Assembly: GCA_013003285.1 (NCBI GenBank)
Contig: JABDJY010000398.1
Location: 1-32,213, forward strand
Source of the DNA: Alphaproteobacteria bacterium
GTDB lineage: Bacteria > Pseudomonadota > Alphaproteobacteria > UBA6615
Reading direction: 5' to 3'
DNA: 32,213 nt
The translations under genes and the position numbers were made by a program. Positions 4,609 to 32,213 of the stretch are shown piece by piece (position 1 is the first letter of the stretch; every line of letters starts with the position of its first letter). The notes beneath the pieces were generated by a model that saw nothing but the letters and a program-made list of their open reading frames with translations, was not told the DNA's origin and made no database searches.

Positions 4609-4628
4609 AGGAATGATGAGAGGTTATC

Positions 4629-5213: not shown

Positions 5214-5238
5214 CAGCACCATCGTGTCGGATACTGCT

Positions 5239-7950
5239 CTAGTTTCGCCGGTTCTGCGCCACCGTTATCATTTTAAGGATCTCGCCGACGATTAGCAGCG
5301 ACGCCGCGACCGCCGCCACCATCAGCCAATCGGCCAAGGCGACCGGTTGTAGGCCCAACACATCGTTTAGACCGGGGACGTACATGGCCGTGATGTGAAG
5401 TCCCTGCGCTGCTACGATGGCGATGATCAGGAACGGGTTGGCAGCGAAGGGAATGCGGAAAACCGAGCGGGTTTCCGAGCGCGCGTTAAGCGCGTGCATA
5501 TTCTCGAACATCACCATCAACAACAGCAGAAGATTGCGCGCGACCGGTTCGGAAAATCCCCGATCGAGGCTCCACGCATAGAACGCGAAGGCCGCACCGC
5601 CCATATAGGTGCCGGCTACCAGAACCTGGGTAATCATGCGCCGCTCGAACAGGCGTTCGTGGGGTGGACGCGGCTGCCGCTCCAATACACCGGGCTCGCC
5701 TTTCTCAAATGCGAGGGCGATGTCCTGAATTCCGTTAGTCACTAGATTGAGCCACAAGAGCTGCACGGCGAACAACGGTACCGGCAATTGGGCGATGATC
5801 GACAGCAGAAAAAGGACGATCTCGCCAAGCCCCGTCGTGATCAGCAGGTAAATCAGCTTGCGCACATTGTCATAGGCGATACGGCCTTCCTCGATGCCGG
5901 GGACAATGGTGGCGAGATTGTCGTCGGCGAGGATCAGATCGGCCGCGGCGCGTGCCGCGTCGGTGCCGCCGCGGCCCATGGCGACACCGATATCCGCCGC
6001 CGATAATGCCGGCGCGTCGTTAACCCCGTCGCCCGTCACCGCGACCACGTGGCCGGCCCGCTGCAAGGCTTCGACGATCGATAATTTTTGTACCGGCTCG
6101 ACCCGGGCGAAGATTCGCGCGGTGCTTGCAAGATGATCGAATTCAGCTGGGTTGCGGTTTGCGGCGCTCAACTCCGCACCTGTCACAACGCGATCGGTAG
6201 TGTCGGCAAGTCCCAAATCCCGCGCAATCGCCAATGCGGTCTGCGGATGATCGCCGGTAATCATGCGCACATCGATACCGGCGGCACGACACTGCGCAAT
6301 TGCGACCGGCACCTCCGGCCGCAGCGGATCGATCAAGCCAACAAGACCGATCAACTGTAAGCCCTGAAGATCGGTTTGTGTTGCCTTCAGCGCGACGTTC
6401 ATCGGCACCGTCCCGCGGGCCAGAGCGAGCACGCGGTATCCTTGCGTCGCCATGTGGTCGGCGGCGGCGAGCGCGGTATCGGCATCGATACCGTCGCACA
6501 TCGGCACGATGACCTCAGCGGCCCCTTTGACATGCGCACATGCCGAGTGGCCCTGGTCGTTGCGGGTGAACAGCGCTGCGAATTTCCGTCGTGGCTCGTA
6601 GGGAATGAGGCCGAGTTGGGGTTGCTCCGCCTGTAGAATGCGCTGTTGGAGGCCAAGTTTGGCGGCCAGCACCAGAAACGCCACATCGACGGTGTCGCCG
6701 ACATGTTCGACCGTCGCGCCGTCTATTCGAAGCGTGGCTTCGTTACATAGGGCCCCGCTCACCGCCAAATCGATCAGCAACCTCTCCTCGATATCGATCA
6801 GGTCGCGGCCTTCGGTGGTGACCCCGCCGATCGGCAGATAACCTTCGCCTCCGATGTCGATCCTGAACGTCTGCCCCGCATCGCCGAACAGCAGAACCTG
6901 CTTTACCGTCAACTCGTTGCAGGTAAGCGTCCCGGTCTTATCGCTAGCTATGACCGTACAGGCCCCCAGCCCCTCGACTGCCGGCAAGGCGCGAACGATG
7001 ACGTTGCGCCGCGCCATTCGGTTAGTCGCGACTGCGAGGGCAATCGTGATGGCGGCGGGTAATCCCTCGGGGATGGCGGCAACCGCCAACGCCACGGCGA
7101 CCAGGAATACCGTAACCAGGGGCACACCTTGGGCGAGTTGAATGGCGCCGATCAGGCCGATCGACAGAAGGGTGACAACGCCGATGATGCGGCCGAAGCG
7201 TGCCAGTCGCGTGACCAGCGGCGGCGATGCGACGCGCCGGTGCGCCAGCGCCACGGCGATCCGACCCACCTCGGTCGCCGCGCCGGTTGCGGTTACGATA
7301 CCGGTAACACGGCCGGACAGTACTGTGGTGGCGGCGTAGAGCATGTTGCTACGCTCGGCGAGCGGCGCGTCATCAGCCACCACCATATTGGCGTTCTTCT
7401 CAACCGGTACGGATTCACCGGTTAACAGAGACTCATCGACCGCGAATTCGTTATCCGCCAGCAGCCGCATATCGGCGGGGACCAGCGCCCCCGAGACCAT
7501 GCGCACGATATCGCCGGGAACCAGATCGCGGGCATCGACCTGCCGTGGCGCGCCATCACGCACCGCCACGGCGAAATTCGGCACCAACGCGTCCAGGGCG
7601 GCGGCACTGGCTTCCGCCCGATATTCCTGGTAGCTGCCGATCGCCGCGTTGACCTGTAGGACGACAAAGATGAACACGGCGTCGGTCAATTCGCCAACGG
7701 CGAGCGAAACCGCTGCGGCGACCAGCAGGAGATAGACCAGAGGGCTTTTGAATTGTCGCAGATAAATGACGAGTAGGCTCAAACGCTCGCGGCGGGGTAG
7801 CACGTTAGCGCCGAACGCAGCCCGGCGGACTTCCACATCGGCGGACTCGAGGCCCGTTTCGTTCGTTTCGAGAACGGCCAAAACCTGATCTGGAGACAGA
7901 TTATGCCACGCTCGCTCGGAAACTTGATCGGGCGACAGAGATCCCGTCAT
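5239..7950 (-). CDS. Cation-transporting P-type ATPase (type II, Ca2+-like)
   Basis: TGES, IPEGLP, DKTGTLT phosphorylation motif, KGA, MITGD and TGDGVNDAPAL. Multiple TM segments. Confidence 0.93.
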   Translation of the reverse strand: MTGSLSPDQVSERAWHNLSPDQVLAVLETNETGLESADVEVRRAAFGANVLPRRERLSLLVIYLRQFKSPLVYLLLVAAAVSLAVGELTDAVFIFVVLQVNAAIGSYQEYRAEASAAALDALVPNFAVAVRDGAPRQVDARDLVPGDIVRMVSGALVPADMRLLADNEFAVDESLLTGESVPVEKNANMVVADDAPLAERSNMLYAATTVLSGRVTGIVTATGAATEVGRIAVALAHRRVASPPLVTRLARFGRIIGVVTLLSIGLIGAIQLAQGVPLVTVFLVAVALAVAAIPEGLPAAITIALAVATNRMARRNVIVRALPAVEGLGACTVIASDKTGTLTCNELTVKQVLLFGDAGQTFRIDIGGEGYLPIGGVTTEGRDLIDIEERLLIDLAVSGALCNEATLRIDGATVEHVGDTVDVAFLVLAAKLGLQQRILQAEQPQLGLIPYEPRRKFAALFTRNDQGHSACAHVKGAAEVIVPMCDGIDADTALAAADHMATQGYRVLALARGTVPMNVALKATQTDLQGLQLIGLVGLIDPLRPEVPVAIAQCRAAGIDVRMITGDHPQTALAIARDLGLADTTDRVVTGAELSAANRNPAEFDHLASTARIFARVEPVQKLSIVEALQRAGHVVAVTGDGVNDAPALSAADIGVAMGRGGTDAARAAADLILADDNLATIVPGIEEGRIAYDNVRKLIYLLITTGLGEIVLFLLSIIAQLPVPLFAVQLLWLNLVTNGIQDIALAFEKGEPGVLERQPRPPHERLFERRMITQVLVAGTYMGGAAFAFYAWSLDRGFSEPVARNLLLLLMVMFENMHALNARSETRSVFRIPFAANPFLIIAIVAAQGLHITAMYVPGLNDVLGLQPVALADWLMVAAVAASLLIVGEILKMITVAQNRRN

Positions 7951-8080
7951 GGCAACGTCAGAGCAGAAAATGCACTGATAAGAACTAAGGGAACGATAGC
8001 GCCCAAGCGTTCGGTCATGTCAACCTTCCGATACCGCAGTTTTGAAGGCCCATGTAGAAATCAAACGGTCGCAGAGCACA

Positions 8081-8094
8081 TTGAGCCGGATCAA
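8081..8094. promoter_or_regulatory. FNR/FixK-like box between divergent P-ATPase and grdC
   Basis: TTGAG-CCGG-ATCAA, 9/10 match to TTGAT-N4-ATCAA, intergenic. Confidence 0.6.
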
Positions 8095-8218
8095 AGTGGA
8101 ACGGCTCCGATAGGTTAAAAGCCTTAATGTCCGCATGCGTTCGCGTCGGAACATTATTTCGTTCCCAGGCTTGTAGGTTGGGGCAGTAATGAAGACACGC
8201 GGCTTCTAGGGTTTTCAC

Positions 8219-9703
8219 ATGGCTAGTAACGCTTTCCTCAATCCGGTCATCAGGAACTGCTCGCAATGCTTGGTTCATGTGCCCGATCTGGCGGTTTACG
8301 GATCGAAGCCGCGGCGCGAAATTCTAAAGGATTCCAAGATCGAACGACGTTTGGTGGCGTCGCTGCGGGCGTTCGATCATGCCGTCGGTTATGCGCCGAA
8401 CCAGACCTATATTGGTAATCTCACGCCCGATCAGTTGGCCGCGATCCCGCGGCCCTGGTACGTCGCGGATGAAGGGGTAAATACCAGCCCACCGCATGTT
8501 GGCCCCTTCGGCGAAATCGTTTCGCAGGACTTGTTCTACGCAATCCTCGAGCGCGCCAACGTACTGACCCCGGCGCTGGTGGAGCTGACCGCGGAGAGCC
8601 ATGAGAAACTGAACGCCAAATTGCGCGGCCATCCAGTGCTTGCCGGCCTGGCCGGCGGCGATGTGGGATCGTCGATGTCGATCGAGGCGGAAATTGAGGC
8701 AGAAACGGCTCTACCGCTGCGCACCGGCGGAAAACTGCGCGGCGGCGTGCGCCGGGATAACCGCAGCGAAGGCCGTGAAGACGCCAATCTCGATGCCGCG
8801 ACACTGCTGGAAGGGCTTTGCGTCAAGGCGTCGGGCACAATCGCGCTGCAGTGGCTGCTGCACCGCGAGGGTATAGGCCCGGAAGAGATCGATTATGTGA
8901 TCAGCTGCGGCGAGGAGGCAGCGGGCGATCGCTATCAACGCGGCGCCGGTGGAATAGCCAAAAGCATCGGTGAGATGTGCGGCTGCGTCAACGCCTCTGG
9001 CATGGATGTGAAGAACTTCTGCGCGGGTCCCGCATCAGCGCTGGTCACGGCCGGCGCGTTGGTGAAGGCTGGCTTGTACCGAAACGTGGCGGTGGTCGCG
9101 GGCGGATCGCTGGCCAAACTCGGCATGAAATTCGAAGCCTTCCTCGAACGCGGCATGCCGGTCCTCGACGATTGCCTGGGCGCGACGGCCTTTCTGGTCA
9201 CCGCCGATGACGGCGTGAGCCCGGTACTCCGCCTGGAGCCGGGTGCGGTGGGGTTGGCGCGCATCGGTGCCAGTACGTCCGACCAAGCGGTCTACCGGGA
9301 ACTTATTCTCAAACCTCTCGAGGCGCTGGGCTTGAGAATGTCCGATGTGGATAAATACGCACCCGAACTTCATAATCCTGAGATCATGGAGCATTCCGGC
9401 TCCGGCGACGTCGTTCACAAGAACTACCGGATCATCGCGGCCCTGGCCGTCATGGACGATCAAATAACCAAAGCGGAGATGCCGTCGTTTATCGAGCGTA
9501 TCGGTATGGTCGGCTTTGCGCCGACCCAAGGCCATATCCCCTCGGCGGTGCCCTATATGGGGCATGCGCTCGAAGCGATGCGACGGGGCGAATTGCGACG
9601 CGCAATGTTTCTATGCAAGGCTAGCCTCTTCCTGAACCGCCTGACGGAACTTTATGATGGCGTGTCTTTCATGCTCGAATCGAACTCTAAATTGAAGTCT
9701 TAG
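8219..9703 (+). CDS. grdC: Glycine/sarcosine/betaine reductase component C, beta subunit
   Basis: YGSKP, YAPNQTYIGN, IDYVISCGEEAAGDRYQRGAG, AKLGM, ELHNPEI, NYRIIAAL, GFAPTQGHIPS and KASLFL..T.LYDGVSF match recalled GrdC motifs. Directly upstream of grdA. Confidence 0.9.
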   Translation: MASNAFLNPVIRNCSQCLVHVPDLAVYGSKPRREILKDSKIERRLVASLRAFDHAVGYAPNQTYIGNLTPDQLAAIPRPWYVADEGVNTSPPHVGPFGEIVSQDLFYAILERANVLTPALVELTAESHEKLNAKLRGHPVLAGLAGGDVGSSMSIEAEIEAETALPLRTGGKLRGGVRRDNRSEGREDANLDAATLLEGLCVKASGTIALQWLLHREGIGPEEIDYVISCGEEAAGDRYQRGAGGIAKSIGEMCGCVNASGMDVKNFCAGPASALVTAGALVKAGLYRNVAVVAGGSLAKLGMKFEAFLERGMPVLDDCLGATAFLVTADDGVSPVLRLEPGAVGLARIGASTSDQAVYRELILKPLEALGLRMSDVDKYAPELHNPEIMEHSGSGDVVHKNYRIIAALAVMDDQITKAEMPSFIERIGMVGFAPTQGHIPSAVPYMGHALEAMRRGELRRAMFLCKASLFLNRLTELYDGVSFMLESNSKLKS

Positions 9704-9722
9704 GTCAAAGGGAGTTACCTTC

Positions 9723-10178
9723 ATGCTGGACGCTAAAAAGGTTGCCGTCTTCGGCGAACGCGACGATGTGACGGGCGTAGCCATACGCAAATGCGTCGAA
9801 GCCGCCGGCGGCGAAGTCGTCTACGAAGCGACGTCCTGCTTCGTGTGAACGGCTGCCGGCGCCGCAGGTCTTGCGGAGCAAGAAGAGATAAAGAAGCTAG
9901 CCGACCAGTTCGGAACGGAGCAGCTTGTCGTCGTGTTCGGCCTTAACGAGCCGGCCAATTTGCGCATCATGGCGACCACGTTCAAGGACGGCGATCCCAG
10001 TTACGCCGGCGCGCTCGGCGGCATCGCGTTGGGCCTCGAAAGCTATCACATCTTCGAATTGAAGGACGAGATTCCGGCGGATGCCTGGGCCGAGGAGATG
10101 GCGTTCGAGGAACTGGAAGCCGGCGACGAGCTGATCGACGAAATCTGCCAGACCATGCGCCAGGTACGCGAAGGGTAA
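9723..10178 (+). CDS. grdA: Glycine/sarcosine/betaine reductase selenoprotein A (151 aa; Sec at UGA 9846-9848, codon 42)
   Basis: GGGAG RBS, then MLDAKKVAVFGERDD...SCFV-UGA-TAAGA... in frame with ORF 9933..10178 (GDPSYAGALGGIALGL). CFVU is the GrdA CxxU motif. Confidence 0.95.
9849..9876 (+). promoter_or_regulatory. Bacterial SECIS element of grdA
   Basis: Hairpin CCGCA-GGTCT-TGCGG (9862-9876). GCAGGTCT lies at +16..+23 after the UGA, the same sequence and spacing as the E. coli fdhF SECIS apical loop as I recall it. Confidence 0.85.
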
Positions 10179-10242
10179 GCGCGGCGTCAGCTATCGTCGG
10201 TTCCATTATCGCTCAAGCTTATCGGGTGCTTCCTGGCCTCAG

Positions 10243-10256
10243 TTGAGCGAGATCAA
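10243..10256. promoter_or_regulatory. FNR/FixK-like box upstream of the 10382 operon
   Basis: TTGAG-CGAG-ATCAA (9/10). A weaker copy, TTGAG-CCCG-CGCAA, lies at 10303-10316. Confidence 0.55.
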
Positions 10257-10381
10257 CGCTCCTCAATCGATTACATGCGATTCAATAATTACAGTTCGTT
10301 CCTTGAGCCCGCGCAACCCGGCATCCGACCCACAATGGTCTATGCATTGCGGTGAAATGCGGCTCTCCGAGGAAGCAGACT

Positions 10382-10927
10382 ATGCCAATCTATCTGGAGC
10401 CGCGAGACGTTACTGAAGACCTTGAGGAATTCAGTTCTGTCTTGATTGTGTCGTGCCCGATCTGCCCGCAGATGTCGCTGTCGATGCAGAAGAAGACGCC
10501 GTTCATTGAATTCTTCAAACATGGCTTCAAGACGCCAGCGTTCGAGGATTATATCGCGTCGATTCGCGCGCCGCTCAAGCAACGCGGTGTTCGCACCGAC
10601 GTTTTCACCATGCGTGCGCCGTCGCCGTTGATGTGCATCTGGACCGAGGGGCAGCGTCGCCGGCTGCGGGAACGTGCCAAGGGATTTGAGGCGGTGCTCG
10701 TGTTGGGATGCCATTCCGCCACAGCGACAGCGAAAGAGGCACTCAAGGACACCGATTGCCAAGTCTTTCAGGCCATGCGGATGAGAGGGCTGGCAAACGC
10801 AACGATGAAAGTCGATTTTCCGGCGACGGTCGAACTCGATATGAATCCGACGCCGACGAACCGCGCGGCGCGACGGCACGAGAATCGGGTCGGCACCGCG
10901 GCGGAAAACGAAAAGGAGCCGTCATGA
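10382..10927 (+). CDS. Hypothetical Cys-containing protein, resembles N-terminal domain of MetV (MTHFR small subunit)
   Basis: GAGGA RBS before ATG 10382. Motifs VLIVSCPICP, MCIW and AVLVLGC. The MetV likeness comes from recalled motif spacing only. Confidence 0.6.
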   Translation: MPIYLEPRDVTEDLEEFSSVLIVSCPICPQMSLSMQKKTPFIEFFKHGFKTPAFEDYIASIRAPLKQRGVRTDVFTMRAPSPLMCIWTEGQRRRLRERAKGFEAVLVLGCHSATATAKEALKDTDCQVFQAMRMRGLANATMKVDFPATVELDMNPTPTNRAARRHENRVGTAAENEKEPS

Positions 10928-11391
10928 CGGAAGATAGTTCAATGGATAAAGGCGATCGTCAGGCGATGATGGGATCCATGATGGAGCAGTTTTTCGGTGG
11001 CATGGGGGCGGACGAGAAAAAAGAGATGTGCGCGGCCATGATGGTCAAGATGACCGAAGGCCTCGACATGAAGGAGATGATGCCCAAGATAATGATGGGC
11101 ATGATGTCCGGAGGGGCGGGCGACGGTCTCGGCGCGATGCAGGACAAGATGTCGAAAATGATGCAAGGCGGCGCCGAACAGCACATGTCGCAAATGCCCG
11201 AAATGATGCTGAAGTCGATGATGCCTCACTGCATTGAAATGATGTTGCCAGCGATCGATCCGGATAAGCGTGGCGAGGCTGCGGTCGGAATTCTCGCGGC
11301 AATCGTCGAAAAAGGTACTGCCGGTATGTCGGACGAGCAAAGGCAGTCTTTTCATAAGGCACTCGAAGAGGTCTTGAGCCCTTCGGCATGA
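10924..11391 (+). CDS. Methionine-rich hypothetical protein (155 aa)
   Basis: AAGGAG RBS and ATGA overlap with the upstream gene. About 31 Met by manual count, many as MM pairs, plus MMPHC. Confidence 0.8.
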   Translation: MTEDSSMDKGDRQAMMGSMMEQFFGGMGADEKKEMCAAMMVKMTEGLDMKEMMPKIMMGMMSGGAGDGLGAMQDKMSKMMQGGAEQHMSQMPEMMLKSMMPHCIEMMLPAIDPDKRGEAAVGILAAIVEKGTAGMSDEQRQSFHKALEEVLSPSA

Positions 11392-11428
11392 AGTCGGCGG
11401 GCGAGAGCCATTGCTCACGATGTGATCA

Positions 11429-12739
11429 ATGAAGCAACACCCTGCCTTGTATCGGTGGTCAATGAAGTGGGCTCATCTCGTTCGGTTCGCGTTGGTCGTT
11501 GCGGCCTTTTCTACGATCCTGCTTATCGCAACGAACACGCGCCCGGTCGTGAGTTGGGCGGACGCACAGACTTTTCAAACAGCGGCAGGCGAAAAAGTAA
11601 CTGCGTACCTGTTTTGGGAACGCACCTGCCCCTATTGCCAGAGCGCGAAATCGTTTCTGCAGGAGGCCGCGGTGCAGAACGACTGGTTGGTCCTGGAAAT
11701 GGTCGAAGTGTCCGCACCGGGCAGCGCCAGGCAATTGTTTTTCCGGGTCAGCCAACTGTTCGGTATCGAACGGCTTGGGGTGCCACTCGTTGTCGTGGGG
11801 GCGCGGCCGTTCGTCGGCTACGACGGCGACGTTACCACCGGCGCCGAGATTCTGACCCATGCACAAAATTGCCTCGCACGAAATTGTCCCGACCTCGTTG
11901 CTGCCGTCGCGGCGACAATCGCAGACATCGGTTCCGGCGCAGCCGAAAAATCGACCGAACCGCCGGAGCCGACGCCGACTGCCTCTGTGCCGCAAGAGGT
12001 CGAGTTACCGCTCATCGGCACGGTAGCCATTGGCGCACTTTCGCTGCCGCTGCTGACTGTGGTGCTGGCCGCCGCCGACGGATTCAACCCTTGCGCGATG
12101 TGGGTGCTGGTCTTTCTGATCGGGCTGCTGGTTGGCATGAAGGATCAGGTGCGAATGTGGGCGCTCGGCATTGCCTTCCTGGTCGCTTCGGCAGGCGTGT
12201 ATTTCGCGTTCATGGCTGCCTGGCTCAATCTATTGCTGCTGCTCGGCGCGTTGTTCTGGATCCGCATCGCGATCGGTCTGGTCGCTCTTGCCGGGGGCAT
12301 TTTCTATTTGCGGGAGTTCGCCGTGAACGCCGCCGGACTATGCAAGATCACATCGTCTGGGCAGCGCCGCCGCGTGACAGAGGCGTTCAAAGGCGTTGTA
12401 CGCGAGCGCCGGTTTATCCTGGCGCTCGCTGGCATCGTGGTGCTCGCCGCGGCCGTCAATTTGATCGAATTATTCTGCTCGGCTGGTATTCCGGCGGTCT
12501 ACACACAAGTATTGGCACTCAGCGAATTGCGCCCATGGACCTATTATTCGTACTTGTTGCTGTATATCGGCGTTTTCCTGCTCGACGATATCGCGATCTT
12601 CGTGATCGCTATTTTAACGGCGCAAGCGGTCGGGTTCACCGGAGGCTATTCGCGCTTCGCCCATCTCGTTGGGGGCCTTGTTATGGTAGCCATCGGCGGG
12701 CTACTGCTGTTTCGGCCCGAGTTACTTGCATTCACTTGA
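11429..12739 (+). CDS. Thioredoxin/glutaredoxin-like (CPYC) domain fused to DsbD/CcdA-like transmembrane domain
   Basis: N-terminal hydrophobic segment, CPYC and GVP cis-Pro loop, then about six TM helices with the conserved Cys pair DGFNPCA and ELFCSAG. Confidence 0.8.
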   Translation: MKQHPALYRWSMKWAHLVRFALVVAAFSTILLIATNTRPVVSWADAQTFQTAAGEKVTAYLFWERTCPYCQSAKSFLQEAAVQNDWLVLEMVEVSAPGSARQLFFRVSQLFGIERLGVPLVVVGARPFVGYDGDVTTGAEILTHAQNCLARNCPDLVAAVAATIADIGSGAAEKSTEPPEPTPTASVPQEVELPLIGTVAIGALSLPLLTVVLAAADGFNPCAMWVLVFLIGLLVGMKDQVRMWALGIAFLVASAGVYFAFMAAWLNLLLLLGALFWIRIAIGLVALAGGIFYLREFAVNAAGLCKITSSGQRRRVTEAFKGVVRERRFILALAGIVVLAAAVNLIELFCSAGIPAVYTQVLALSELRPWTYYSYLLLYIGVFLLDDIAIFVIAILTAQAVGFTGGYSRFAHLVGGLVMVAIGGLLLFRPELLAFT

Positions 12740-12800
12740 CCCCAGTGTGCATCTGAGCGTTCCAAAATCACGTATCGTGAGGCTCTACTGGTCTCTCCAA

Positions 12801-13244
12801 TCACCGAACGATTGTGACCGGCACCTTGGCGTTATGGAGAACTTTCTCCGAAACACTGCCGACCAATAAGCCTCTCACTTCGCCAAGCCCGCGGCTTCCC
12901 ATGACGATCAAATCGGCATCGAAGGCCGTCGCGGCGTCGAGAATCACTTGTTCGGGGTCGCCCACAATTGATTCGTGCGACGTTTCTTTGACGCCGGCGT
13001 TGGCGGCTCGAAGTTCCGCCGACGCCAGTATTTTTTCGATAACGGTCCCAACCTCGTCTGGCCCATCGATATGTTCCGAGACAGCGTAATCGTGAAGCTC
13101 ATCAGGAAGCCGCCCGAAGGGATAGTCGGCGGCGTGGATCAGAACGACCTTGGCATCATATTTCGACGCAAGATCGCTGGCGAAATCGACCGCACGGTTC
13201 GCGTTACTGGACCCGTCGATCGGCACGAGGATGGTCTTGAGCAT
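12801..13244 (-). CDS. Universal stress protein (UspA family, single domain)
   Basis: ILVPIDGS and DLIVMGSRGLG...LVGSVSEKVLH..VPVTIVR. AGAGAGG RBS. Confidence 0.95.
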   Translation of the reverse strand: MLKTILVPIDGSSNANRAVDFASDLASKYDAKVVLIHAADYPFGRLPDELHDYAVSEHIDGPDEVGTVIEKILASAELRAANAGVKETSHESIVGDPEQVILDAATAFDADLIVMGSRGLGEVRGLLVGSVSEKVLHNAKVPVTIVR

Positions 13245-13327
13245 GGCGAACCTCTCTTTGGCGGATTTCCGTTGTCGAAACGGCGGTTTATTCGAAGAGA
13301 ATCTAGCACTCGTTGCGCCGGGGTATT

Positions 13328-13341
13328 TTGCGCTTGATCAA
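13328..13341. promoter_or_regulatory. Degenerate FNR/FixK-like box upstream of uspA
   Basis: Minus strand TTGAT-CAAG-CGCAA (8/10), 83 nt before the uspA start, overlapping the grdB stop. Confidence 0.4.
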
Positions 13342-14681
13342 TCTGACGATATTGGCTCGTCGAAGACATGCTGGTCGGAAATATCGGTCCCCAGCGCGGC
13401 GAGCGCCTGTTCGACCAAGCGGCGGCGAATCGCTTTTTCCTCATCCGGCGATTTATCGGGATCGCCCAGGGGATGGGGAATGGCGATGCTTGGAATGATG
13501 CGGTTGGCGCCAACGGTTTTAGAGATCGGCACGATCGAGCAGATATGCGCGGTGGGCAGTCCCACCCGTTCCAGTTCCTTGACGATCGTTGCCCCGCAAC
13601 GCGTGCAGGTGCCTCATGTGGAGGTCAGGATAACCGCCTGGACACCTACATTCACCAACTCGGCCGCGATGTTCTGGCCATAACGCTGTGCCCGCTCCAC
13701 CGATGTCGCATTGCCGACGGTGGCGTAATAGGTTTCGCTGAGTTTTCCGATACGCCCCTCGCGTTCCAGATCGCGCATAACATCGAGCGGCAACACCCGG
13801 TTCGGATCCTCGTTGGCATAGGTGGGGTCGTAGCCGCCGTGGACGGATTGGTGGGTCTCCCCGCTTAACCGGTCCAATCCCTGAAGCGAATAGGCGCCAA
13901 ACTTGCTGGCATTTGCGGATTCGATGCGGTCCGGGTTTCCCCTTGGCACGATCCCGCCCGAGGTCACCAGGGCCAGGGTCGCCTGCGCCATATTCTTCAC
14001 CGCGGGTGCGGGTGGCACGCGGCCGAATACCGGCATGGCATACTCGGTCTCCGGCGTAGCGCCGCTGACTTTACGCAACAGCATATCAATCGCCCGTTGG
14101 GCGCCCGGTGCGTCGGCGAAATAGTTCTGGCGCAGGCCGTGTGAAATGGTGTTGTCTTCGGTGGGCACGATTGCCGCGCCCGCGACGAGCTTAAGCCCAA
14201 CACGCGCCATATTGGTCGCTGCGTCGCGCATCCCCATGACATCCGAACTGGCCCGCACGATTGTCACTGGCCGGCGATAGATCTCGACCGCCGGATTTTC
14301 TTCATGCAATGCGGTTGCGGCGTGAATTCCCAGCCGCGCCTGTACGGCCTGACACACAGCTGCGCAGGCCATACCGTAGCGCCCGGCGTTGAAGGCCGGG
14401 CCGGCCAACAGCAATTTGGGTTTGAAATCAGCCGCAACCGTGCGCTTCGCTTCGATGAGGCCGACAATCTCCGCGACCGCGGCATCCAGGTTCTCGGCCA
14501 TATAGTTATCGCCGGCGACGATAGTGCCGATGATTTCGATGTCCGGTGCCATGCCGGCAATCAGTTGCCCCGGCCCCTTCGGCCCATCGTACCACTGGGG
14601 TGCGACTCCGGCTTGATCCTCGCCGCCCAGGCCGCCGAAGAATTGGTTCACATAGTGAATAGTCTGGATCTTTTCGGGCAC
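13338..14681 (-). CDS. grdB: Glycine/sarcosine reductase selenoprotein B (about 447 aa; Sec at UGA 13614-13616)
   Basis: HYVNQFFGGLGGE, AGPAFNAGRYG, LVTSGGIVP, HGGYD and DPNRVLPLD, then ILTST-UGA-GTCTRCGAT continuing in frame into ORF 13338..13565 (IPHPLGDP). UxxCxxC is the GrdB/GrdF active site. GTG 14681 was chosen by RBS spacing; GTG 14687 is an alternative. Confidence 0.95.
13587..13613 (-). promoter_or_regulatory. Putative SECIS element of grdB
   Basis: Minus strand CGTTGC-GGG-GCAACG hairpin at +13..+27 after the UGA. The loop Gs start at +19, the same register as in grdA. Confidence 0.65.
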
Positions 14682-14683
14682 GG

Positions 14684-15931
14684 TCACGCCTCTCGACAAC
14701 TCAGGTGGCTATAGCCGAGCTGATTGGTCGCCCCGATAATGGCCTGTAGTTCGACTTCCATGCTGCCGTCGTCGCGCAGGCTGTGCGGATAGCCGCCGGC
14801 GAGCCGCGACACGTCGGGTAATGGTCCGATCGTAGTTGCCATGGCCGGCAGCTCGACTCGCTCGTTGGCATTTCCCGTCGACACCAGGGCGTCGGCCTCG
14901 GGCGTAGTGTCGGCAAGGGACTGGGAAGCGCCATCGCTACCAGCGAATTCGTCGGTTATCGCAACCGTCTTGATGCCCGCCTGTTCCAAATCGCGCACGA
15001 TCATCATCAAATCAGCATCGGGATTGCCGAAGCCTTCTTTACTGATGATGACGCCACTCGATTTCATCTGGATAATTTTTTCGACCGCGGCTGCGGCCGA
15101 GAGCTGCTTTTCGGCAAGGCGCGTGGGTTCGTTGGTAATGACAACACCGGTAAAATTCCAGCGCGTCCCGTGGCCGCTCAGCAACTCGGCGATGACGGGA
15201 TTATTCTGATGGTGGAAGGTGGTGTTCTTGTCGCAGGCGCTCACGCAGTTTCCTGATAAGACACCATTGTCGAGCACGATGCGGGGATCGACGCTGATCG
15301 GTAGGCCTTCCTGTGCATTTCGTCCCAGCACGTAGGTGTCGTGCAGCAAGCCTTGGCTGAGAACAATGTAGACATAGCCTATGCGCGGCAGGCTCGGGGC
15401 ACATGGCACTTCGTCCCACAGCACCTCTTCGGTTTGGTCTGGTACGGAATCCAAACAACTTTGGGCGACAAATTTCGCCGCACGGGTTCCGGCTTCCCGT
15501 AACGCTTCTTCATGCGCGTGGGGGTCCAGGGGTTCGTGAACATCGATTTCCAGGACAATCAGGGGCAACCGGGAAAACGGCGTATAGGCCGCGCCGGGCC
15601 CAGACATATCGATGATGCCTTCCTGAAAGCCGACGATGGGGCCACAGGTTGCGATGGCGACATTCTCCAGGACACAGAGCACGCCTGTTCCCGGCTCCGT
15701 GCCGACCGCTTTCGCGCGCGGTTGGACGACGTCCTTGACGCACAAGATACGCGTGGCTTCGCCGGGCAACGCCAACCTGACGCGGATACGCGCCAAACGA
15801 TGGTCTTGTTCCTGCAATGTGCGCGCCAACGCCGCCGCGTCGAGAGACAAGCAGCCCTGATTGATGCCGGTCTGTTCGCCCAGCTTGACCTGGTTAACAA
15901 TATGCTTGTGCAAGGTTAGGGTCATTTCCAT
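14684..15931 (-). CDS. grdE: Glycine/sarcosine reductase component B proprotein (alpha/beta)
   Basis: VKDVVQPRAK, FQEGIIDMSGPGA.YTPFS, QGLLHDTYV, SGNCVSACDKNTT.HHQNNP, EGFGNPDADL, TDEFAG.DGASQSLAD and STGNAN. Adjacent to grdB. Confidence 0.92.
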   Translation of the reverse strand: MEMTLTLHKHIVNQVKLGEQTGINQGCLSLDAAALARTLQEQDHRLARIRVRLALPGEATRILCVKDVVQPRAKAVGTEPGTGVLCVLENVAIATCGPIVGFQEGIIDMSGPGAAYTPFSRLPLIVLEIDVHEPLDPHAHEEALREAGTRAAKFVAQSCLDSVPDQTEEVLWDEVPCAPSLPRIGYVYIVLSQGLLHDTYVLGRNAQEGLPISVDPRIVLDNGVLSGNCVSACDKNTTFHHQNNPVIAELLSGHGTRWNFTGVVITNEPTRLAEKQLSAAAAVEKIIQMKSSGVIISKEGFGNPDADLMMIVRDLEQAGIKTVAITDEFAGSDGASQSLADTTPEADALVSTGNANERVELPAMATTIGPLPDVSRLAGGYPHSLRDDGSMEVELQAIIGATNQLGYSHLSCREA

Positions 15932-16007
15932 TCTCGACGAACAATCGCTCCGGCATTGCCATAAGAGCTATAGATCTAGAATTGCGCACAACTCGCCACA
16001 TTGGCCA

Positions 16008-16021
16008 TTGAGCAACATCAA
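16008..16021. promoter_or_regulatory. FNR/FixK-like box between divergent grdE and tdh
   Basis: TTGAG-CAAC-ATCAA (9/10), 76 nt from the grdE start and 91 nt from the tdh start. Confidence 0.62.
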
Positions 16022-16112
16022 ACCAACTATTACGAGAAGCAGGCTATTGAACCTTGTAAACTACCCTGATCTTTGATCCCGGACGCTGCACAAATTAGCG
16101 AGAAATAGCGAC

Positions 16113-17072
16113 ATGCGAAAAATTCTTGTTACCGGGGCGCTGGGGCAGATCGGTCAGGAGTTGGTACCGGCCCTGCGCGACCGCTACGGCGCCGCAAACA
16201 TCGTTGCGTCGGATATCCGTAGCCTGCCGGCAGGCGAGGAAAACGCCGACGATATGTTCGAGGTACTAGACTGCACCAAGGCGCAGCAGGTCGAAGACGT
16301 GGTCGACCGGCACGATATTGGGTGCGTCTACCACCTTGCCGCGTTGCTGTCGGCAACAGCTGAAGACAAACCGCAGGCGGCATGGCGTCTCAATATGGAC
16401 AGCCTCTATTTGATGTTGGAGGTCGCCCGGCAATTCGACTGTGCGCTGTTCTTTCCCAGCTCGATCGGCGCCTTCGGCCCCACCACGCCGCGCAACGAGA
16501 CTCCGCAGGACACTATCCAGCGTCCCACCACCATGTACGGCGTCACCAAGGTGGCGGGTGAGCTGTTGTGCGACTATTACGCGAAACGATTTGGCGTTGA
16601 TGCGCGGGGATTGCGGTTCCCCGGCCTGATCTCCTATGTCGCCCCGCCCGGCGGCGGGACGACGGACTATTCGGTGGAAATCTTCTACCAGGCGATTCGC
16701 GACCGGCGTTACACCTGCCCGCTGAAGCCCGATACGCGCCTCGATATGATGTATATGCCGGACGCGATCCGCGCGATGATCGAACTGATGGAAGCCGACC
16801 CCTCCGATCTAACCCACCGCAACGCGTTCAATGTGACAGCGATGAATGTTACCCCTGAAGAGTTGGCCACCGAAATATGCAAGCACATGCCGGACTTCGT
16901 CATCGACTACGACATCGACCCGGTGCGGCAAGCGATCGCTGATTCCTGGCCCCGCGCGATGGACGACAGCGCCGCCCGGTCCGAATGGCACTGGGCGCCG
17001 CGCTACGACCTGTCGGCCATGACTTCTGACATGCTGGAAAAACTGAGCGCCAAACTCAAGCCCGCGAAATGA
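16113..17072 (+). CDS. tdh: L-threonine 3-dehydrogenase (SDR/epimerase type)
   Basis: TGALGQIG, HLAALLSA, PSSIGAFG, YGVTK, PGGGTTDY and RQAIADSWP are characteristic of SDR-type TDH. Adjacent to kbl. Confidence 0.88.
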   Translation: MRKILVTGALGQIGQELVPALRDRYGAANIVASDIRSLPAGEENADDMFEVLDCTKAQQVEDVVDRHDIGCVYHLAALLSATAEDKPQAAWRLNMDSLYLMLEVARQFDCALFFPSSIGAFGPTTPRNETPQDTIQRPTTMYGVTKVAGELLCDYYAKRFGVDARGLRFPGLISYVAPPGGGTTDYSVEIFYQAIRDRRYTCPLKPDTRLDMMYMPDAIRAMIELMEADPSDLTHRNAFNVTAMNVTPEELATEICKHMPDFVIDYDIDPVRQAIADSWPRAMDDSAARSEWHWAPRYDLSAMTSDMLEKLSAKLKPAK

Positions 17073-17096
17073 TGTAATCGCCCCAAGGGGATTTCG

Positions 17097-18323
17097 ATGC
17101 CTGATGACCGTTTAGCCAATCTGCTCTCCGCCGAACTCACCGAAATGGAAGCAACCGGCCGGCGCAAGGGAGGCGAGACGGTGTTCGCCGGCGTTGTGCC
17201 GCCGCGCGGCGACAAGGGGCCGCGCTATCTGCTGGAGGGCGAGGGCGATAAGCCGTTTCTCCGAATGAACGCCAACAACTATCTGGGCCTGGCCCGTCGG
17301 CCCGAAGTTATCGAGGCGGAGGAGACAGCGGTGCGGGCGTTTGGTGCCGGCCCCGGCGCGGTGCGCTTCATCAGCGGCACATGGTCGCCCCATGTGGAAC
17401 TGGAACAGCGCCTCGCCGCGTTTCACCGGCGCGAGGCGGCCATGATCTTCAGCTCCGCCTACGCAGCGGTCATGGGGGTCCTACCGCCGCTGATTAGCGA
17501 GGCAACAGCGGTGATTAGCGACGAGCTCAATCACAACTGCATCATCAATGCCGTGCGGCTGAGCCGGCCGCTGGAAAAACATGTTTATCCCCACCTCGAT
17601 ATGGCGGCGTTGGAAGAGAGCCTGGCGAAGGCCGCAGAGTCCTGCCGGCGCGCCATTATTGTTACCGACGGCGTGTTCAGCATGCGCGGCGATCACGCCC
17701 CACTCCACAAAATCTCCGCGCTGGCGCACAAATACGATGATGTGTTCCCCGAGAATATTTTGGTCGTCGTCGACGATTCTCATGGCGTCGGCGCTTTCGG
17801 CGCATCCGGCCGCGGCACGGAGGAATATACAGATAGCCCACCCGCCGATCTTCTGGTGGCGACGCTGGGCAAGGCTTTCGGGGTTAACGGCGGTTATGTC
17901 ACTGGCGGCGACACGCTTATCGACTATTTACGCGAGACCTCGCCCTTCTACGTTTTTTCCAACCCGATCACGCCGGGCGAAGCCGCCGCCGCCAAGGCGG
18001 CCGTCGATCTCGTCGACAGTCCGCGTGGCGTGGCCTTGCTCGATCATTTGCGCGACATGACCGTGAGATTTGAGACAGGTCTGCTCGCGCTTGGCTTCGA
18101 AACCATAGCTGGCGAACATCCCGTTGTGCCGTTGATGGTGCGGGACACCGAGAAAACGTCGCAATTGGTTGCGCATTTGCGAGACCAAGGCGTTCTCGCC
18201 ACCGGGCTCAATTACCCGGTTGTGCCGCGCGGCGACGAAGAAATTCGGTTCCAGGTCTCAGCCGATCACACGCCAGCCGATATCGACGAAGCACTTAACG
18301 CTTTGGCCGATTTTTCGAATTGA
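17097..18323 (+). CDS. kbl: 2-amino-3-ketobutyrate CoA ligase (glycine C-acetyltransferase), PLP class II
   Basis: ANNYLGL, VRFISGT, TDGVFSMRG, DDSHG, TLGKA (PLP Lys) and YPVVP.G...IRFQVSA.H. Located downstream of tdh. Confidence 0.82.
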   Translation: MPDDRLANLLSAELTEMEATGRRKGGETVFAGVVPPRGDKGPRYLLEGEGDKPFLRMNANNYLGLARRPEVIEAEETAVRAFGAGPGAVRFISGTWSPHVELEQRLAAFHRREAAMIFSSAYAAVMGVLPPLISEATAVISDELNHNCIINAVRLSRPLEKHVYPHLDMAALEESLAKAAESCRRAIIVTDGVFSMRGDHAPLHKISALAHKYDDVFPENILVVVDDSHGVGAFGASGRGTEEYTDSPPADLLVATLGKAFGVNGGYVTGGDTLIDYLRETSPFYVFSNPITPGEAAAAKAAVDLVDSPRGVALLDHLRDMTVRFETGLLALGFETIAGEHPVVPLMVRDTEKTSQLVAHLRDQGVLATGLNYPVVPRGDEEIRFQVSADHTPADIDEALNALADFSN

Positions 18324-18345
18324 GTCCGAGACTGTCGTAATCAAG

Positions 18346-19428
18346 TTATTCCTCGATTGTCGTGGTGAGCTCGATCACCCGGCCTTGGCGAAACACTTTG
18401 ACGGCGACGGTTTGCCCCACCTCAATTTCGGCGAGGTGATCGCGTAGCGCTATGTACGACTCGAACTTACCAACCTGAAACCCATCAACCTCAAGGATGA
18501 TGTCACCGCCGAGCAATATGTCGTGCTCACCAATCTTCGCCGGCAAGTAGCTAGGCTGCAGTCCCAGCCGCGCGCCCGGTGAGCCAGCGGCAACCCGTTG
18601 GACCAGAACGCCGGAGTCTTGGGGCAGGTTGAATATCCCAGCCAATTTCTCATCGAGACCGAACACACTGATGCCACTCCAGGGCGTGCGGGGTGTTAGG
18701 AGAAGTTGCCTAATCGAGTTGGACGTGACCGAGAAGCCGACACCCTCGAAGGCACCAGACTGGCTCAAAATGTGGCTGACAATGCCGACCACCTCACCGT
18801 TCATGTCAAACATAGGTCCGCCGGAATTGCCGCGATTGATCGCAACATCAGCCTGAAAAAATTCCGCAAGGGCGAGCGGTCCGCCGAGCGTACCTGGCAA
18901 TCGGCGAGCGCTGATGCGGCCCACAGTCAGCGTATGGCTGAGACCGTAGGGCGCGCCGATGACAAATATCCGTTGGCCCACACGCACGGCGTCCGAATTA
19001 CCCATCTTCGCGATAACGGCGCCTTCTGGTACGCGCTCGAGCCGAAGCATCGCGAGATCCGCAGCCGGCTCCGACGAGACGATCTTGGCCAGAACTTTGG
19101 TGCCGTCGCCAAACTCGACCTGCACAGTATCCGCAACTTGTACCAAATGAGCTGCTGTCAGAACGTCTCCATCCTCCGAAATCAGCACACCAGAACCTTG
19201 GTCGGTGAAGGGCACGACGCCGACATTATTATTGCCGACTAATGCACGCTCGCGTGTCCGCACGAGAACGACCGAACCGTTGACGGCACTAAACAGGTCT
19301 TCGAGCGCTGGTTCGGCTTCTGACGCTTGGCTCGGCCAGGCGAAAAACAGCAGGAAAACTGCGATTGAGCCTATACCCAACTTTGTCTTCCCCGTCCCAA
19401 TTGGTGGATTGTTTCGGTTGCTTGTCAT
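18346..19428 (-). CDS. HtrA/DegP-like trypsin serine protease with PDZ domain
   Basis: GSGVLI, LTAAH, DLAML and INRGNSGGP catalytic triad, C-terminal PDZ (GDIILEVDG), signal-like segment. Start uncertain (ORF is open to 19527). Confidence 0.88.
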   Translation of the reverse strand: MTSNRNNPPIGTGKTKLGIGSIAVFLLFFAWPSQASEAEPALEDLFSAVNGSVVLVRTRERALVGNNNVGVVPFTDQGSGVLISEDGDVLTAAHLVQVADTVQVEFGDGTKVLAKIVSSEPAADLAMLRLERVPEGAVIAKMGNSDAVRVGQRIFVIGAPYGLSHTLTVGRISARRLPGTLGGPLALAEFFQADVAINRGNSGGPMFDMNGEVVGIVSHILSQSGAFEGVGFSVTSNSIRQLLLTPRTPWSGISVFGLDEKLAGIFNLPQDSGVLVQRVAAGSPGARLGLQPSYLPAKIGEHDILLGGDIILEVDGFQVGKFESYIALRDHLAEIEVGQTVAVKVFRQGRVIELTTTIEE

Positions 19429-19571: not shown

Positions 19572-19585
19572 TTGACCGGCATCAA
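19572..19585. promoter_or_regulatory. FNR/FixK-like box upstream of two-domain USP
   Basis: TTGAC-CGGC-ATCAA (9/10), 58 nt before ATG 19644, compatible with a class II activator position. Confidence 0.65.
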
Positions 19586-19643
19586 TGTGCAGTTGTCGAA
19601 AGTGGCCATACTCAAGCCAGAAATTGCATGGCAGGAGAATATG

Positions 19644-20465
19644 ATGAGCTACAAAACCATTCTTCTTGGATTGGTGGCCGGCGATCCGGGCAATGGCGCG
19701 AGAATTAATTCAAGCATCGGTCTCGCAGCGGCTCAGGGCGCGCATTTGACGGCGCTCTATATGATCCCGCCCTTCAGCATTCCAGGATTTGCCGAAGTGC
19801 CGGTGCCGACCTATGTCGCCGAGCAGTACTATGCAGACGAAGAAGCGGCGGCAGGGCCAGTGATTGAGGCTTTCGAAGCTGCGTTAGCTGCACAAGGCGA
19901 TGTGCCCGGTATTATACGAAAGACTAATGTCCTGCCCCGCGACACGTTGCGAGAGAACGCACCGTTCGCCGATCTCATCGTCCTCGGCCAACCCCATGAG
20001 GATTATTACGATCCAGCGACCGACTCTCTGGTCGGCAATGTCTCCTTGTCAGCGGGCCTTCCGGTTCTCGCCGTGCCGCGGGAAGGCGACTTTGGCAGTT
20101 TCGGCAAGAACGTCTTGGTCGCGTGGACGCCCCGGCGCGAATGCACCAGAGCCGTGCGTGACGCTTTACCCTTCCTGCAACGGGCGGAGCGAGTTATCGT
20201 TCTGCGGGCCAACGCCTCTGACGACGGCGCCGACGTGGAGATCGGCGCCTATCTGGCGCGGCACGGCGTCAAGGCCGATATCGAGAAGGTGAAGGCTAAG
20301 GATATCTCGGTGGCGGATGCGATTATCAAGACCGCGTCGAGCGAAGATTGTGATCTCATCGTCATGGGCGCTTACGGCCATTCGCGATCGCGCGAATATG
20401 TTTTTGGCGGTGTCACCCGCGACATTCTGCGGCACATGACGGTACCGACGCTGTTCGCACACTAG
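19644..20465 (+). CDS. Universal stress protein (tandem USP domains)
   Basis: AGGAG RBS. MSYKTIL, ADLIVLGQ, VLVAW..RE..RAVRDALPFL and DLIVMGAYGHSR.RE..FGGVTR..L. Confidence 0.92.
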   Translation: MSYKTILLGLVAGDPGNGARINSSIGLAAAQGAHLTALYMIPPFSIPGFAEVPVPTYVAEQYYADEEAAAGPVIEAFEAALAAQGDVPGIIRKTNVLPRDTLRENAPFADLIVLGQPHEDYYDPATDSLVGNVSLSAGLPVLAVPREGDFGSFGKNVLVAWTPRRECTRAVRDALPFLQRAERVIVLRANASDDGADVEIGAYLARHGVKADIEKVKAKDISVADAIIKTASSEDCDLIVMGAYGHSRSREYVFGGVTRDILRHMTVPTLFAH

Positions 20466-22828: not shown

Positions 22829-23029
22829 CGACCTTTCCACTATATTAGACAATTTTTATATGCGGGTGCGATAATATACAGGCGCACGGACCCCGCCAGG
22901 TAATGGCTTGATATCGGCTTTCAATGCCGATCACTGAAAGTTGCGCCATGCGGCGTCAATAAACACAAGCTTTTCAAGCTTGGCGCCGCTATCTCGCGCA
23001 AGACAAGCTGCATTCTTCATACACCGAAT

Positions 23030-24199: not shown

Positions 24200-24369
24200 A
24201 ATAAATTCAAAACCAAACTTCGAGCGATTTGATCAAGATCACTGCCTTGCGTCCCCTGGTATGCGATTCTTTGTTTAGGATAAGTTGTTGCGCGTGGATC
24301 TGGTTGGCGTCTTTTTCCAAAATGGTTGCGACAAAGCGCCAAACAGCTGGCACTGGAGTTGGTTCTCGA

Positions 24370-27823: not shown

Positions 27824-27854
27824 CATAGGCATTAGCGAGGTCTAACCGGAATCG

Positions 27855-32175: not shown

Positions 32176-32213
32176 AGACGTGAAGGAAATCGCGCAAAAG
32201 CTCCGTGTGAAAC

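Follow-up and report, generated by a model that had tools for sequence, protein, structure and literature searches.

The 32,213-nucleotide contig JABDJY010000398.1, which was analysed whole and is called the window here, carries the genes of a selenium-dependent glycine reductase in an alphaproteobacterium, and no gene for GrdD was found in the genome to which it belongs. Glycine reductase is the textbook case of selenoenzyme-driven substrate-level phosphorylation, with acetyl phosphate released by protein C, and in clostridia its genes form an operon, grdE-A-B-C-D, together with trxB-trxA. The missing GrdD, the energy-conserving half of the enzyme, is the real surprise of this locus. It escaped the initial annotation, which was made by a model from the DNA letters alone and which correctly placed grdC-grdA and grdE-grdB with their selenocysteine (Sec) codons, tdh-kbl, and FNR-like boxes. 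We consider that the locus probably encodes a working, GrdD-less, selenium-dependent glycine reductase, which would be switched on by a regulator of the FnrL/FixK type when oxygen runs out, in a host living in coastal and marine sediments. The genes of the module are as follows.

8219-9703, plus strand: grdC, protein C beta subunit, 494 residues, FabH-like fold; NCBIfam reduct_C_beta (NF040746) 550.6 bits, cut-off 450.
9723-10178, plus strand: grdA, selenoprotein A with Sec42; reduct_selen_A (NF040748) 147.5 bits, cut-off 130; also Pfam GRDA.
13338-14699, minus strand: grdB, selenoprotein B, 453 residues, Sec362; TIGR01918 543 bits, Pfam GRDB 456.6 bits.
14684-15931, minus strand: grdE, proprotein of the alpha and beta subunits of protein B; Pfam Gly_reductase 472.3 bits.
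16113-17072, plus strand: tdh, L-threonine 3-dehydrogenase of the short-chain dehydrogenase/reductase (SDR) type, GalE-like; solved relatives at E values of 1.4e-124 to 1e-70.
17097-18323, plus strand: kbl, probable 2-amino-3-ketobutyrate coenzyme A (CoA) ligase (glycine C-acetyltransferase); KBL enzymes lead its solved relatives, E 1e-72.

The grdC-grdA pair on the plus strand converges with the grdE-grdB pair on the minus strand. The window system resembles the enzyme of clostridia and Peptoclostridium acidaminophilum in the CxxU motif of GrdA, the UxxCxxC motif of GrdB, the Asn-Cys pair of GrdE, the presence of GrdC, and the predicted dependence on Sec and thioredoxin. The in-frame TGA codon of grdA (9846-9848) lies within the CxxU motif (C-F-V-U), and that of grdB (13614-13616) within the UxxCxxC motif (U-G-T-C-T-R-C); Sec read-through corrects the extent of grdB to the one given above. 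These codons are kept in 15 of 15 GrdA and 11 of 11 GrdB genes of related loci, and a hairpin is found 12-15 bases downstream of both, as judged from minimum-free-energy folds without a shuffle control. The Asn-Cys pair of GrdE, the self-cleavage site that yields the pyruvoyl group, is located at N228-C229, and such a pair is also present in 9 of 10 loci of the GrdC clade described below and in 55 of 61 Bacillota loci.

A search of the genome for the Sec machinery, recommended in the initial annotation, found a tRNA-Sec gene on contig C268 (c[1653,1748]) beside a selD fragment (5-409), selA at a contig end (286 bits, cut-off 268), selB (468 bits, cut-off 242), and selD split into two contig-end pieces, on C268 and C1:4-498 (143 and 131 bits, cut-off 125). 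The tRNA-Sec, SelA, SelB, and SelD encoded by these genes make the Sec-insertion trait complete. The same search found trxB elsewhere in the genome, outside the locus (408 bits, cut-off 343), and we propose thioredoxin and TrxB as the likely electron donor.

The GrdD model NF040747 exceeds its cut-off in none of the 17 whole clade genomes, where the best match (33.6 bits) is PlsX-like, versus all three Bacillota control genomes (553-587 bits). The best match in the host genome, 32.1 bits, falls on PlsX, and a tblastn search with GrdD finds there only PlsX (E 3.4e-4), in a plsX-fabH operon. Comparison with Clostridium GrdD places grdD directly after grdC in all 64 Bacillota loci but in none of the 17 clade loci; in 15 of the 17 it is grdA that follows grdC, and the other two loci end within 72 bases of grdC. 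Absences in the host's metagenome-assembled genome (MAG) alone carry little weight, because the assembly yields no more than 25 tRNA genes and has selA and selD truncated at contig ends. The clade genome G001/G016, which is a single contig of 4.3 Mb and 99% complete, is also without grdD, acetate kinase (ackA), and a true phosphotransacetylase gene (pta). Assembly gaps as the cause of the missing grdD were rejected in view of this complete genome, the absence from all 17 genomes, and the presence of grdA in the place of grdD.

The route from acetyl phosphate to ATP is missing as well. No ackA match at E≤0.001 was found in any of the nine Pseudomonadota clade genomes (G000-G004, G066, G067, G068, and G070), and pta exceeds its cut-off in none of five genomes, four of which have pta-like matches below it. 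With grdD, ackA, and pta not found, the clostridial-type fermentation implied in the initial annotation, in which ATP is made through acetyl phosphate, cannot operate in that form. We note that phosphotransacetylase (PTA)-like domains of 157-191 bits lie inside open reading frames (ORFs) of about 770-795 residues (G000:C307:1203-2117, G000:C253:8960-9868, and equivalents in G001-G003). Each such ORF presumably encodes an NADP-malic enzyme whose C-terminal domain is PTA-like, and automatic pathway annotation could misread it as phosphotransacetylase.

No conserved neighbour that might serve as a GrdD surrogate was found when all ORFs of 15 loci (the window and L016-L029) were clustered. The clusters present in at least three of these loci are grdC, grdE, grdB, tdh, kbl, a P-type ATPase, HtrA, and an aminotransferase, and two further small clusters are short ORFs that overlap grdA or grdB and are read from the opposite strand. 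Ten further neighbouring ORFs from seven loci likewise contain no surrogate. They are a mixed set of two luciferase-like monooxygenases, a zinc-dependent alcohol dehydrogenase, a class II aldolase, a Na/H exchanger, a major facilitator superfamily transporter, an amidohydrolase, a DUF2459 protein, and two ORFs without a family.

The GrdD-less GrdC proteins form a clade that ranges over Alpha- and Gammaproteobacteria, Planctomycetota, Desulfobacterota, Myxococcota, and Acidimicrobiales. Identity to the GrdC of the window is 72-83% in MAGs of Alphaproteobacteria/Rhodospirillales, 66-67% in Gammaproteobacteria/Pseudomonadales, 62-64% in Planctomycetota, and 53-60% in Desulfobacterota, Myxococcota, and Acidimicrobiales (46% for the Acidimicrobiales locus L095), versus 42-46% in Clostridium. 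In a GrdC tree of 39 rows, comprising all 17 clade rows and every third of the 64 Bacillota rows (42 omitted), the split between loci without and with GrdD needs only one change, on a branch with a Shimodaira-Hasegawa-like approximate likelihood ratio (SH-aLRT) support of 100. Between the clade and Bacillota, 40 GrdC columns differ though fixed within each group. The initial annotation had taken the locus for a rearranged one; judged from these sequences, grdC-grdA with grdE-grdB is the standard layout of a multi-phylum clade.

Glycine is the likely substrate, because tdh is located near grd in 8 of the 17 clade loci and GrdB contains glycine-type motif elements. The gene kbl is near grd in 6 of the 17, and these linkages are found in Alphaproteobacteria, Gammaproteobacteria, and Planctomycetota. 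Of the 21 solved relatives of Tdh at E≤1e-10, 18 are SDR-type threonine dehydrogenases or structural homologues; NCBIfam has no equivalog for this type of enzyme. Kbl stays below the cut-off of its family models (NF005394, 351.6 against 460; bioF, 316.9 against 426), its five best solved relatives are KBL enzymes, and its gene directly follows tdh. Compared by us with the motifs in the excerpted text of PMC9751293, the GrdB of the window has the TxGNxTxV and RV[IL]PxD elements, and the TTGTGT element of GrdF, the sarcosine-type homologue, is absent.

The AlphaFold2 model of GrdC has a predicted local distance difference test (pLDDT) score of 87.4 and a predicted template-modelling score of 0.91. 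Foldseek matches it best to FabH and OleA (E 6e-11), and the FabH matches include solved entries with acetyl-CoA, CoA, and an acetylated cysteine; by sequence, only marginal FabH matches (E 0.0026) are found among solved structures. All 26 sequences compared keep residues C230, C268, and H439, and C268 appears to occupy the position of the FabH nucleophile, judged from the surrounding motif. Modelled as a homodimer, GrdC scores 0.93, versus 0.00 for the best of three controls; at least 94% of contacts are shared between runs, and the partner has a pLDDT of at least 89. Of 30 proteins solved as homo-pairs, 20 attain that mark, as does 1 of 23 solved as single chains; these counts are a rough guide since the GrdC run used our own alignment. 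The pass may also reflect likeness, because FabH-type homodimers have already been solved. A concentration of the clade-specific residues at the dimer interface was considered and rejected: 14 of the 40 columns lie there by a naive count, and the odds ratio relative to columns conserved in both groups is 1.24 (p = 0.56).

Because GrdD, acetate kinase, and phosphotransacetylase are absent, the last step of the reaction must differ from that of the clostridial enzyme. In the mechanism that we propose, Tdh would oxidise threonine to 2-amino-3-ketobutyrate, producing NADH, and Kbl would split this intermediate into glycine and acetyl-CoA. GrdE and GrdB would bind glycine and place its carboxymethyl group on the selenol of GrdA, with two electrons given by thioredoxin that is reduced by TrxB. 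As described in the excerpted text of PMC10298544, the C2 unit of the Se-carboxymethyl intermediate becomes an acetyl thioester on protein C. The FabH-like GrdC homodimer would take this acetyl group on C268 and pass it to CoA, a transfer proposed because acetyl groups move between CoA and the enzyme cysteine in FabH. The product of the GrdC-only step is thus probably acetyl-CoA, by analogy with these enzymes. The net reaction would convert threonine and 2 CoA into 2 acetyl-CoA and NH3, and would be redox-neutral and oxygen-free.

The window is the whole of contig C131 of a 3.94-Mb genome (506 contigs, 60% G+C, 93% complete). The host shares its GTDB family with the organism of locus L016, whose record reads 'MAG: Alphaproteobacteria bacterium' and whose genome is a single contig. 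For 11 of 20 window proteins compared, gene order is common to both, and the syntenic set of ATPase, grdC, grdA, methionine-rich ORF, grdB, grdE, tdh, kbl, and HtrA shows 71-89% protein identity. The host tmRNA is of the permuted kind, which is typical of Alphaproteobacteria. Two genes for CtaD-type subunit I of cytochrome c oxidase (aa3-type) are present in the genome, and the host can therefore respire oxygen. Its genes thus identify the host as a Gram-negative alphaproteobacterium able to respire oxygen, in agreement with the proteobacterial and facultative host suggested in the initial annotation.

Rather than a strict-anaerobe lineage in which the arrangement is common, or a genome short of Sec genes, the two cases named there as counting against it, we found the Sec genes described above and a grdC that is rare in the lineage, carried within the family by 2 of 36 further genomes and within the class by 1 of 400 further genomes sampled evenly. 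The genome G007, from the same genus and 99% complete, has no DNA match to 3484-19356, and in G006 (75% complete) the flanks are present and contigs end at either edge of the grd genes; we therefore make no claim on gain or loss within the genus. The base composition does not point to a foreign island, with a GC content of 0.57-0.63 across the locus versus 0.60 for the genome. Contigs from estuary and marine-sediment metagenomes (X5, X6, and X8, from three studies) match the locus in 28-30 of its 30 bins, with 90-99% likeness, and span gene borders, for example 15317-16195 and 11082-13253. The locus is covered best by beach-sand runs, one of which may be the source sample.

The FNR-like pattern TTGATNNNNATCAA, with at most one mismatch, occurs at five sites in the window versus 0.74 expected, and none of 100 shuffles reaches five. 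Three of these sites belong to the grd/tdh region.

8081-8094: FNR/FixK-like box, 138 bases upstream of grdC; in L016 a box at 9849, before the grdC match start at 10001.
10243-10256: FNR/FixK-like box between grdA and the inserted ORFs; in L016 a box at 11987, just before the methionine-rich ORF.
16008-16021: FNR/FixK-like box in the divergent grdE/tdh promoter region; in L016 a box at 15985, between grdE and tdh.

Each of these three boxes has one mismatch, and the position is kept in L016 at all three places. Genome-wide, 4 of 23 sites of the form TTGA[TGC]N4ATCAA, a pattern picked after seeing the sites, lie in the 32-kb contig versus 0.19 expected at the genome rate, and 5 of the 80 TTGA-N6-TCAA sites lie on it. 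The candidate regulators are an FnrL-like protein (L111:1018-1746) with a C-x2-C-x7-C arrangement and an ETVSR helix, and a FixK/FnrL-like protein (L112) of about 151-153 bits. The claim that the locus is oxygen-regulated stands as far as the enriched boxes, their recurrence in L016, and the FnrL/FixK-like regulators are concerned. The control itself we infer, on what we believe to be good grounds.

Several points weigh against the reading of a working, oxygen-controlled glycine reductase that delivers acetyl-CoA. The glycine-type GrdB model TIGR01917 is matched at 523 bits, below its cut-off of 602, as are the models for other substrates (sarcosine GrdF, 536.7 against 800; betaine, 461 against 775), and GrdE matches only the sarcosine GrdG model, at 371.8 bits and below cut-off. 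GrdB also departs at two positions from the glycine-type motif given in the excerpted text of PMC9751293, with AGD for CGD and VHGG for AHGG. Most clade genomes are incomplete MAGs, and all comparison loci with GrdD come from Bacillota. Three of the 17 clade genomes do have AckA, one from Planctomycetota and two recorded as Desulfobacterales and Deltaproteobacteria, and acetyl phosphate could therefore be used there. As to a route from acetyl-CoA to ATP, succinyl-CoA:acetate CoA-transferase exceeds its cut-off in none of eight genomes, and genes resembling NDP-forming acyl-CoA synthetases, found in five of five genomes, all fall below cut-off and may encode Pat-type acetyltransferases. The acetyl-CoA product is purely what we infer by analogy. 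Kohlstock et al. in 2001 reportedly assigned the acetyl-accepting catalytic thiol of the clostridial enzyme to GrdD and not to GrdC, so that GrdC on its own may be inert. Boxes are not kept in L017-L029, which are more distant loci, the FnrL-like protein scores 218.9 bits against a FnrL cut-off of 300, and the FixK-like one is also below the NCBIfam cut-offs. No RNA run containing the locus was found, and two RNA runs share next to none of its sequence words.

Four other explanations were weighed. It is scarcely credible that the enzyme is canonical, with grdD, ackA, and pta present but missed by the assemblies and ATP made as in clostridia. The fragmented, 93% complete host genome of 506 contigs, with its 25 tRNA genes and its cut selA and selD, and the prevalence of MAGs in the clade would allow for missed genes, but the complete G001/G016 has none of the three genes, and grdD is absent from 17 of 17 clade genomes while found in all three controls, its place being occupied by grdA in 15 of 17 loci. 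We regard this explanation as already nearly refuted. GrdD could also have been replaced by another maker of acetyl phosphate, either the housekeeping PlsX or an unrecognised analogue, and to this we give a small chance. GrdD is itself PlsX-like, the Clostridium protein matching the plsX model TIGR00182 at 35 bits; a PlsX-type match occurs in every clade genome that gives any match, and three of the 17 have AckA. However, the host PlsX sits in the usual plsX-fabH operon, none of the nine Pseudomonadota clade genomes has acetate kinase, and neither the conserved neighbours of 15 loci nor the ten neighbouring ORFs of seven loci offer a candidate.

An equally small chance is left for a pure electron sink, in which the acetyl-enzyme is hydrolysed to acetate and NAD(P)H is re-oxidised during anoxic survival with no energy conserved. 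This would account for the missing grdD, ackA, and pta and for the lack of a clear route from acetyl-CoA to ATP, and the module is linked with genes for universal stress proteins (USPs) and with FNR boxes, as in anoxic-survival regulons, for which the Anr-dependent USPs of Pseudomonas provide a parallel. The related D-proline reductase works without substrate-level phosphorylation, according to the excerpted text of PMC10298544. A pure sink, however, needs no acetyl acceptor, and proline reductase has none, whereas GrdC is kept and highly conserved in every clade member, with a box of its own before grdC in the window and L016. That the enzyme reduces sarcosine or betaine, with tdh-kbl beside it by coincidence, is very unlikely. 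The top substrate score of GrdB is for sarcosine GrdF and the only one of GrdE is for GrdG, both far below cut-off, as is the betaine score, whereas the glycine-type elements are present in GrdB and the GrdF element is absent (excerpted text of PMC9751293), and tdh and/or kbl, producers of glycine, lie beside grd in 8 of 17 clade loci from three phyla or classes. We therefore keep to the GrdD-less, oxygen-controlled glycine reductase as the probable reading of this locus. A wider version is more tentative: the clade as a whole may be a phosphate-independent glycine reductase, in which the GrdC homodimer passes the acetyl group to CoA or another thiol and which, with Tdh and Kbl, turns threonine into 2 acetyl-CoA under FnrL/FixK-type induction in aerobic Alpha- and Gammaproteobacteria of oxygen-fluctuating sediments.

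Compared with the clostridial system, the window genome lacks GrdD and acetate kinase, grdA follows grdC, grdE-grdB is convergent and not part of one operon, there is no trxA or trxB in the locus, and GrdC is only 42-46% identical to the Bacillota proteins. Glycine reductase has already been described in facultative Gammaproteobacteria and in Desulfovibrio desulfuricans, and the 'unexpected host' of the initial annotation was therefore overstated. According to the excerpted text of PMC10059138, Shewanella sp. MTB7 has glycine reductase and Sec genes, more than 70% identical to those of Photobacterium species and tied to low-oxygen adaptation, in an operon that keeps grdD, trxA, trxB, and selD with selA and selB upstream. 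Like Shewanella, the host of the window is a facultative proteobacterium that has both glycine reductase and Sec genes; unlike in Shewanella, trxA, trxB, and sel genes are absent from its locus and grdD from its genome, and its GrdC belongs to the multi-phylum clade, probably distinct from that of Shewanella. In Desulfovibrio desulfuricans G11, another Gram-negative host, glycine reductase belongs to the reductive glycine pathway and feeds acetyl units into central metabolism, and the cluster, as given in the excerpted text of PMC7547702, contains both C subunits (alpha and beta) with thioredoxin and its reductase; for the downstream steps G11 uses Pta or Ack together with Acs. The window system is without the alpha subunit, Pta, and Ack.

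D-proline reductase (PrdA/PrdB) has homologous pyruvoyl and selenoprotein subunits (GrdB-PrdB 96 bits, GrdE-PrdA 49 bits) and no protein C, whereas the window system keeps a conserved GrdC together with GrdA. Clostridium sticklandii converts threonine via 2-amino-3-ketobutyrate to glycine and acetyl-CoA and has glycine reductase (excerpted text of PMC3091704). In the window, unlike in C. sticklandii, tdh-kbl is physically joined to grd and shares an FNR-like box with it, the host is an aerobe, and Tdh is of the SDR type.

The remaining features of the window, apart from its two ends, are listed below.

3130-4608, flank: L,D-transpeptidase (ycbB type).
4629-5213, flank: MepK (ycbK).
5239-7950, minus strand: P-type cation ATPase (SERCA/PMR1-like), divergent from grdC; TIGR01116 597.5 bits, below the cut-off of 703.
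10352-10927, plus strand: ORF with a CPxC motif; no Pfam or NCBIfam family, start likelier near 10484.
10861-11391, plus strand: methionine-rich protein of 176 residues; 71% identity to the stretch at the same place in L016 (12032-12553).
11429-12739, plus strand: membrane protein with an N-terminal CPYC glutaredoxin/thioredoxin-like domain; weak glutaredoxin-type matches, all below cut-off.
12801-13244, minus strand: USP, Pfam Usp 124.4 bits, between the convergent grd operons.
19572-20465, plus strand: tandem USP with two Usp stretches; FNR-like box at 19572-19585, at the annotated start.

The ycbB-ycbK flank is as the initial annotation described it, and an HtrA gene is also present in the flank. 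Of the USPs that it counted within the stretch of about 10 kb, the single one lies in this range and the tandem one outside it. With its USPs and boxes, the window contig looks like a hotspot of the anoxia response, as far as gene content can suggest.

A homologue of the P-type ATPase adjoins the grd genes in four loci of different lineages, those of the window, L016 (5663-8416), L021 (18342-21119), and L028 (7230-9974), and may be a gene associated with the grd locus. It may be an ATP-driven ion pump that keeps the membrane energised in anoxia; all its family scores are below cut-off. The ATPase of L028 ends 27 bases before the grdC match start (10001), and that of L021 follows a Na/H exchanger. 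The ORFs at 10352-10927, 10861-11391, and 11429-12739 match no Pfam or NCBIfam family at E values up to 1, and the Atlas clusters for them are unnamed only. The CPxC ORF is absent from L016, and its Atlas record starts at residue 45. The methionine-rich ORF lies between grdA and grdB behind an FNR-like box and has DNA-level matches in G024 and G016. The CPxC ORF and the CPYC membrane protein are inserts specific to the lineage of the window, and since a marine-sediment contig of run X6 (2172 letters) covers 11082-13253, the CPYC insert recurs in a related strain elsewhere.

Other genes were found beside the grd genes of related loci. A luciferase-like flavin-dependent monooxygenase is present in two alphaproteobacterial loci (L017, 8579-9946; L019, 14525-15715), and such an oxygen-using family is an odd neighbour for an oxygen-sensitive selenoenzyme. 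A class I/II aminotransferase is located near grd in three loci, two from Alphaproteobacteria and one from Planctomycetota (L018, 4643-5824; L019, 15802-16917; L023, 12031-13146), and in L023 it directly follows grdA. At the start of the contig (1-1374, plus strand), there is a PorB-like beta subunit of a 2-oxoacid:ferredoxin oxidoreductase (245 bits, below cut-off), an enzyme type usual in anaerobes and found here in a genome with aa3 oxidases. The other end (21611-32213) carries a polysaccharide cluster unrelated to the finding, with a GH26-like ORF, WecB, a nucleotidyltransferase, GH113, a large GT2-like protein, DUF2334, and a GT4 fragment.

That Proteobacteria can have glycine reductase, and that threonine can feed glycine reduction, is already known. 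A GrdD-less clade is not described in the full-text literature searched; the supplements of PMC9751293, PMC7547702, and PMC10059138, which lay outside the search, may bear on its novelty. What marks this clade is its layout, the frequent tdh-kbl linkage, the FNR boxes of its alphaproteobacterial branch, and oxygen-respiring hosts without acetate kinase. Metagenomic pathway predictions that require all five subunits before naming 'glycine reductase' or 'Stickland fermentation', or take all five as given, will miss or misread the clade. A clade that keeps GrdA, GrdB, GrdE, and GrdC without GrdD raises the question of what GrdC does alone and what the product is. If the product is acetyl-CoA, the mechanism of protein C would need revising, and a classic selenoenzyme would gain a new terminal chemistry. 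It would also offer a shorter step from glycine to acetyl-CoA for the assimilation of CO2 and formate and for engineering of the reductive glycine pathway, and some aerobic sediment bacteria could survive anoxia on amino acids.

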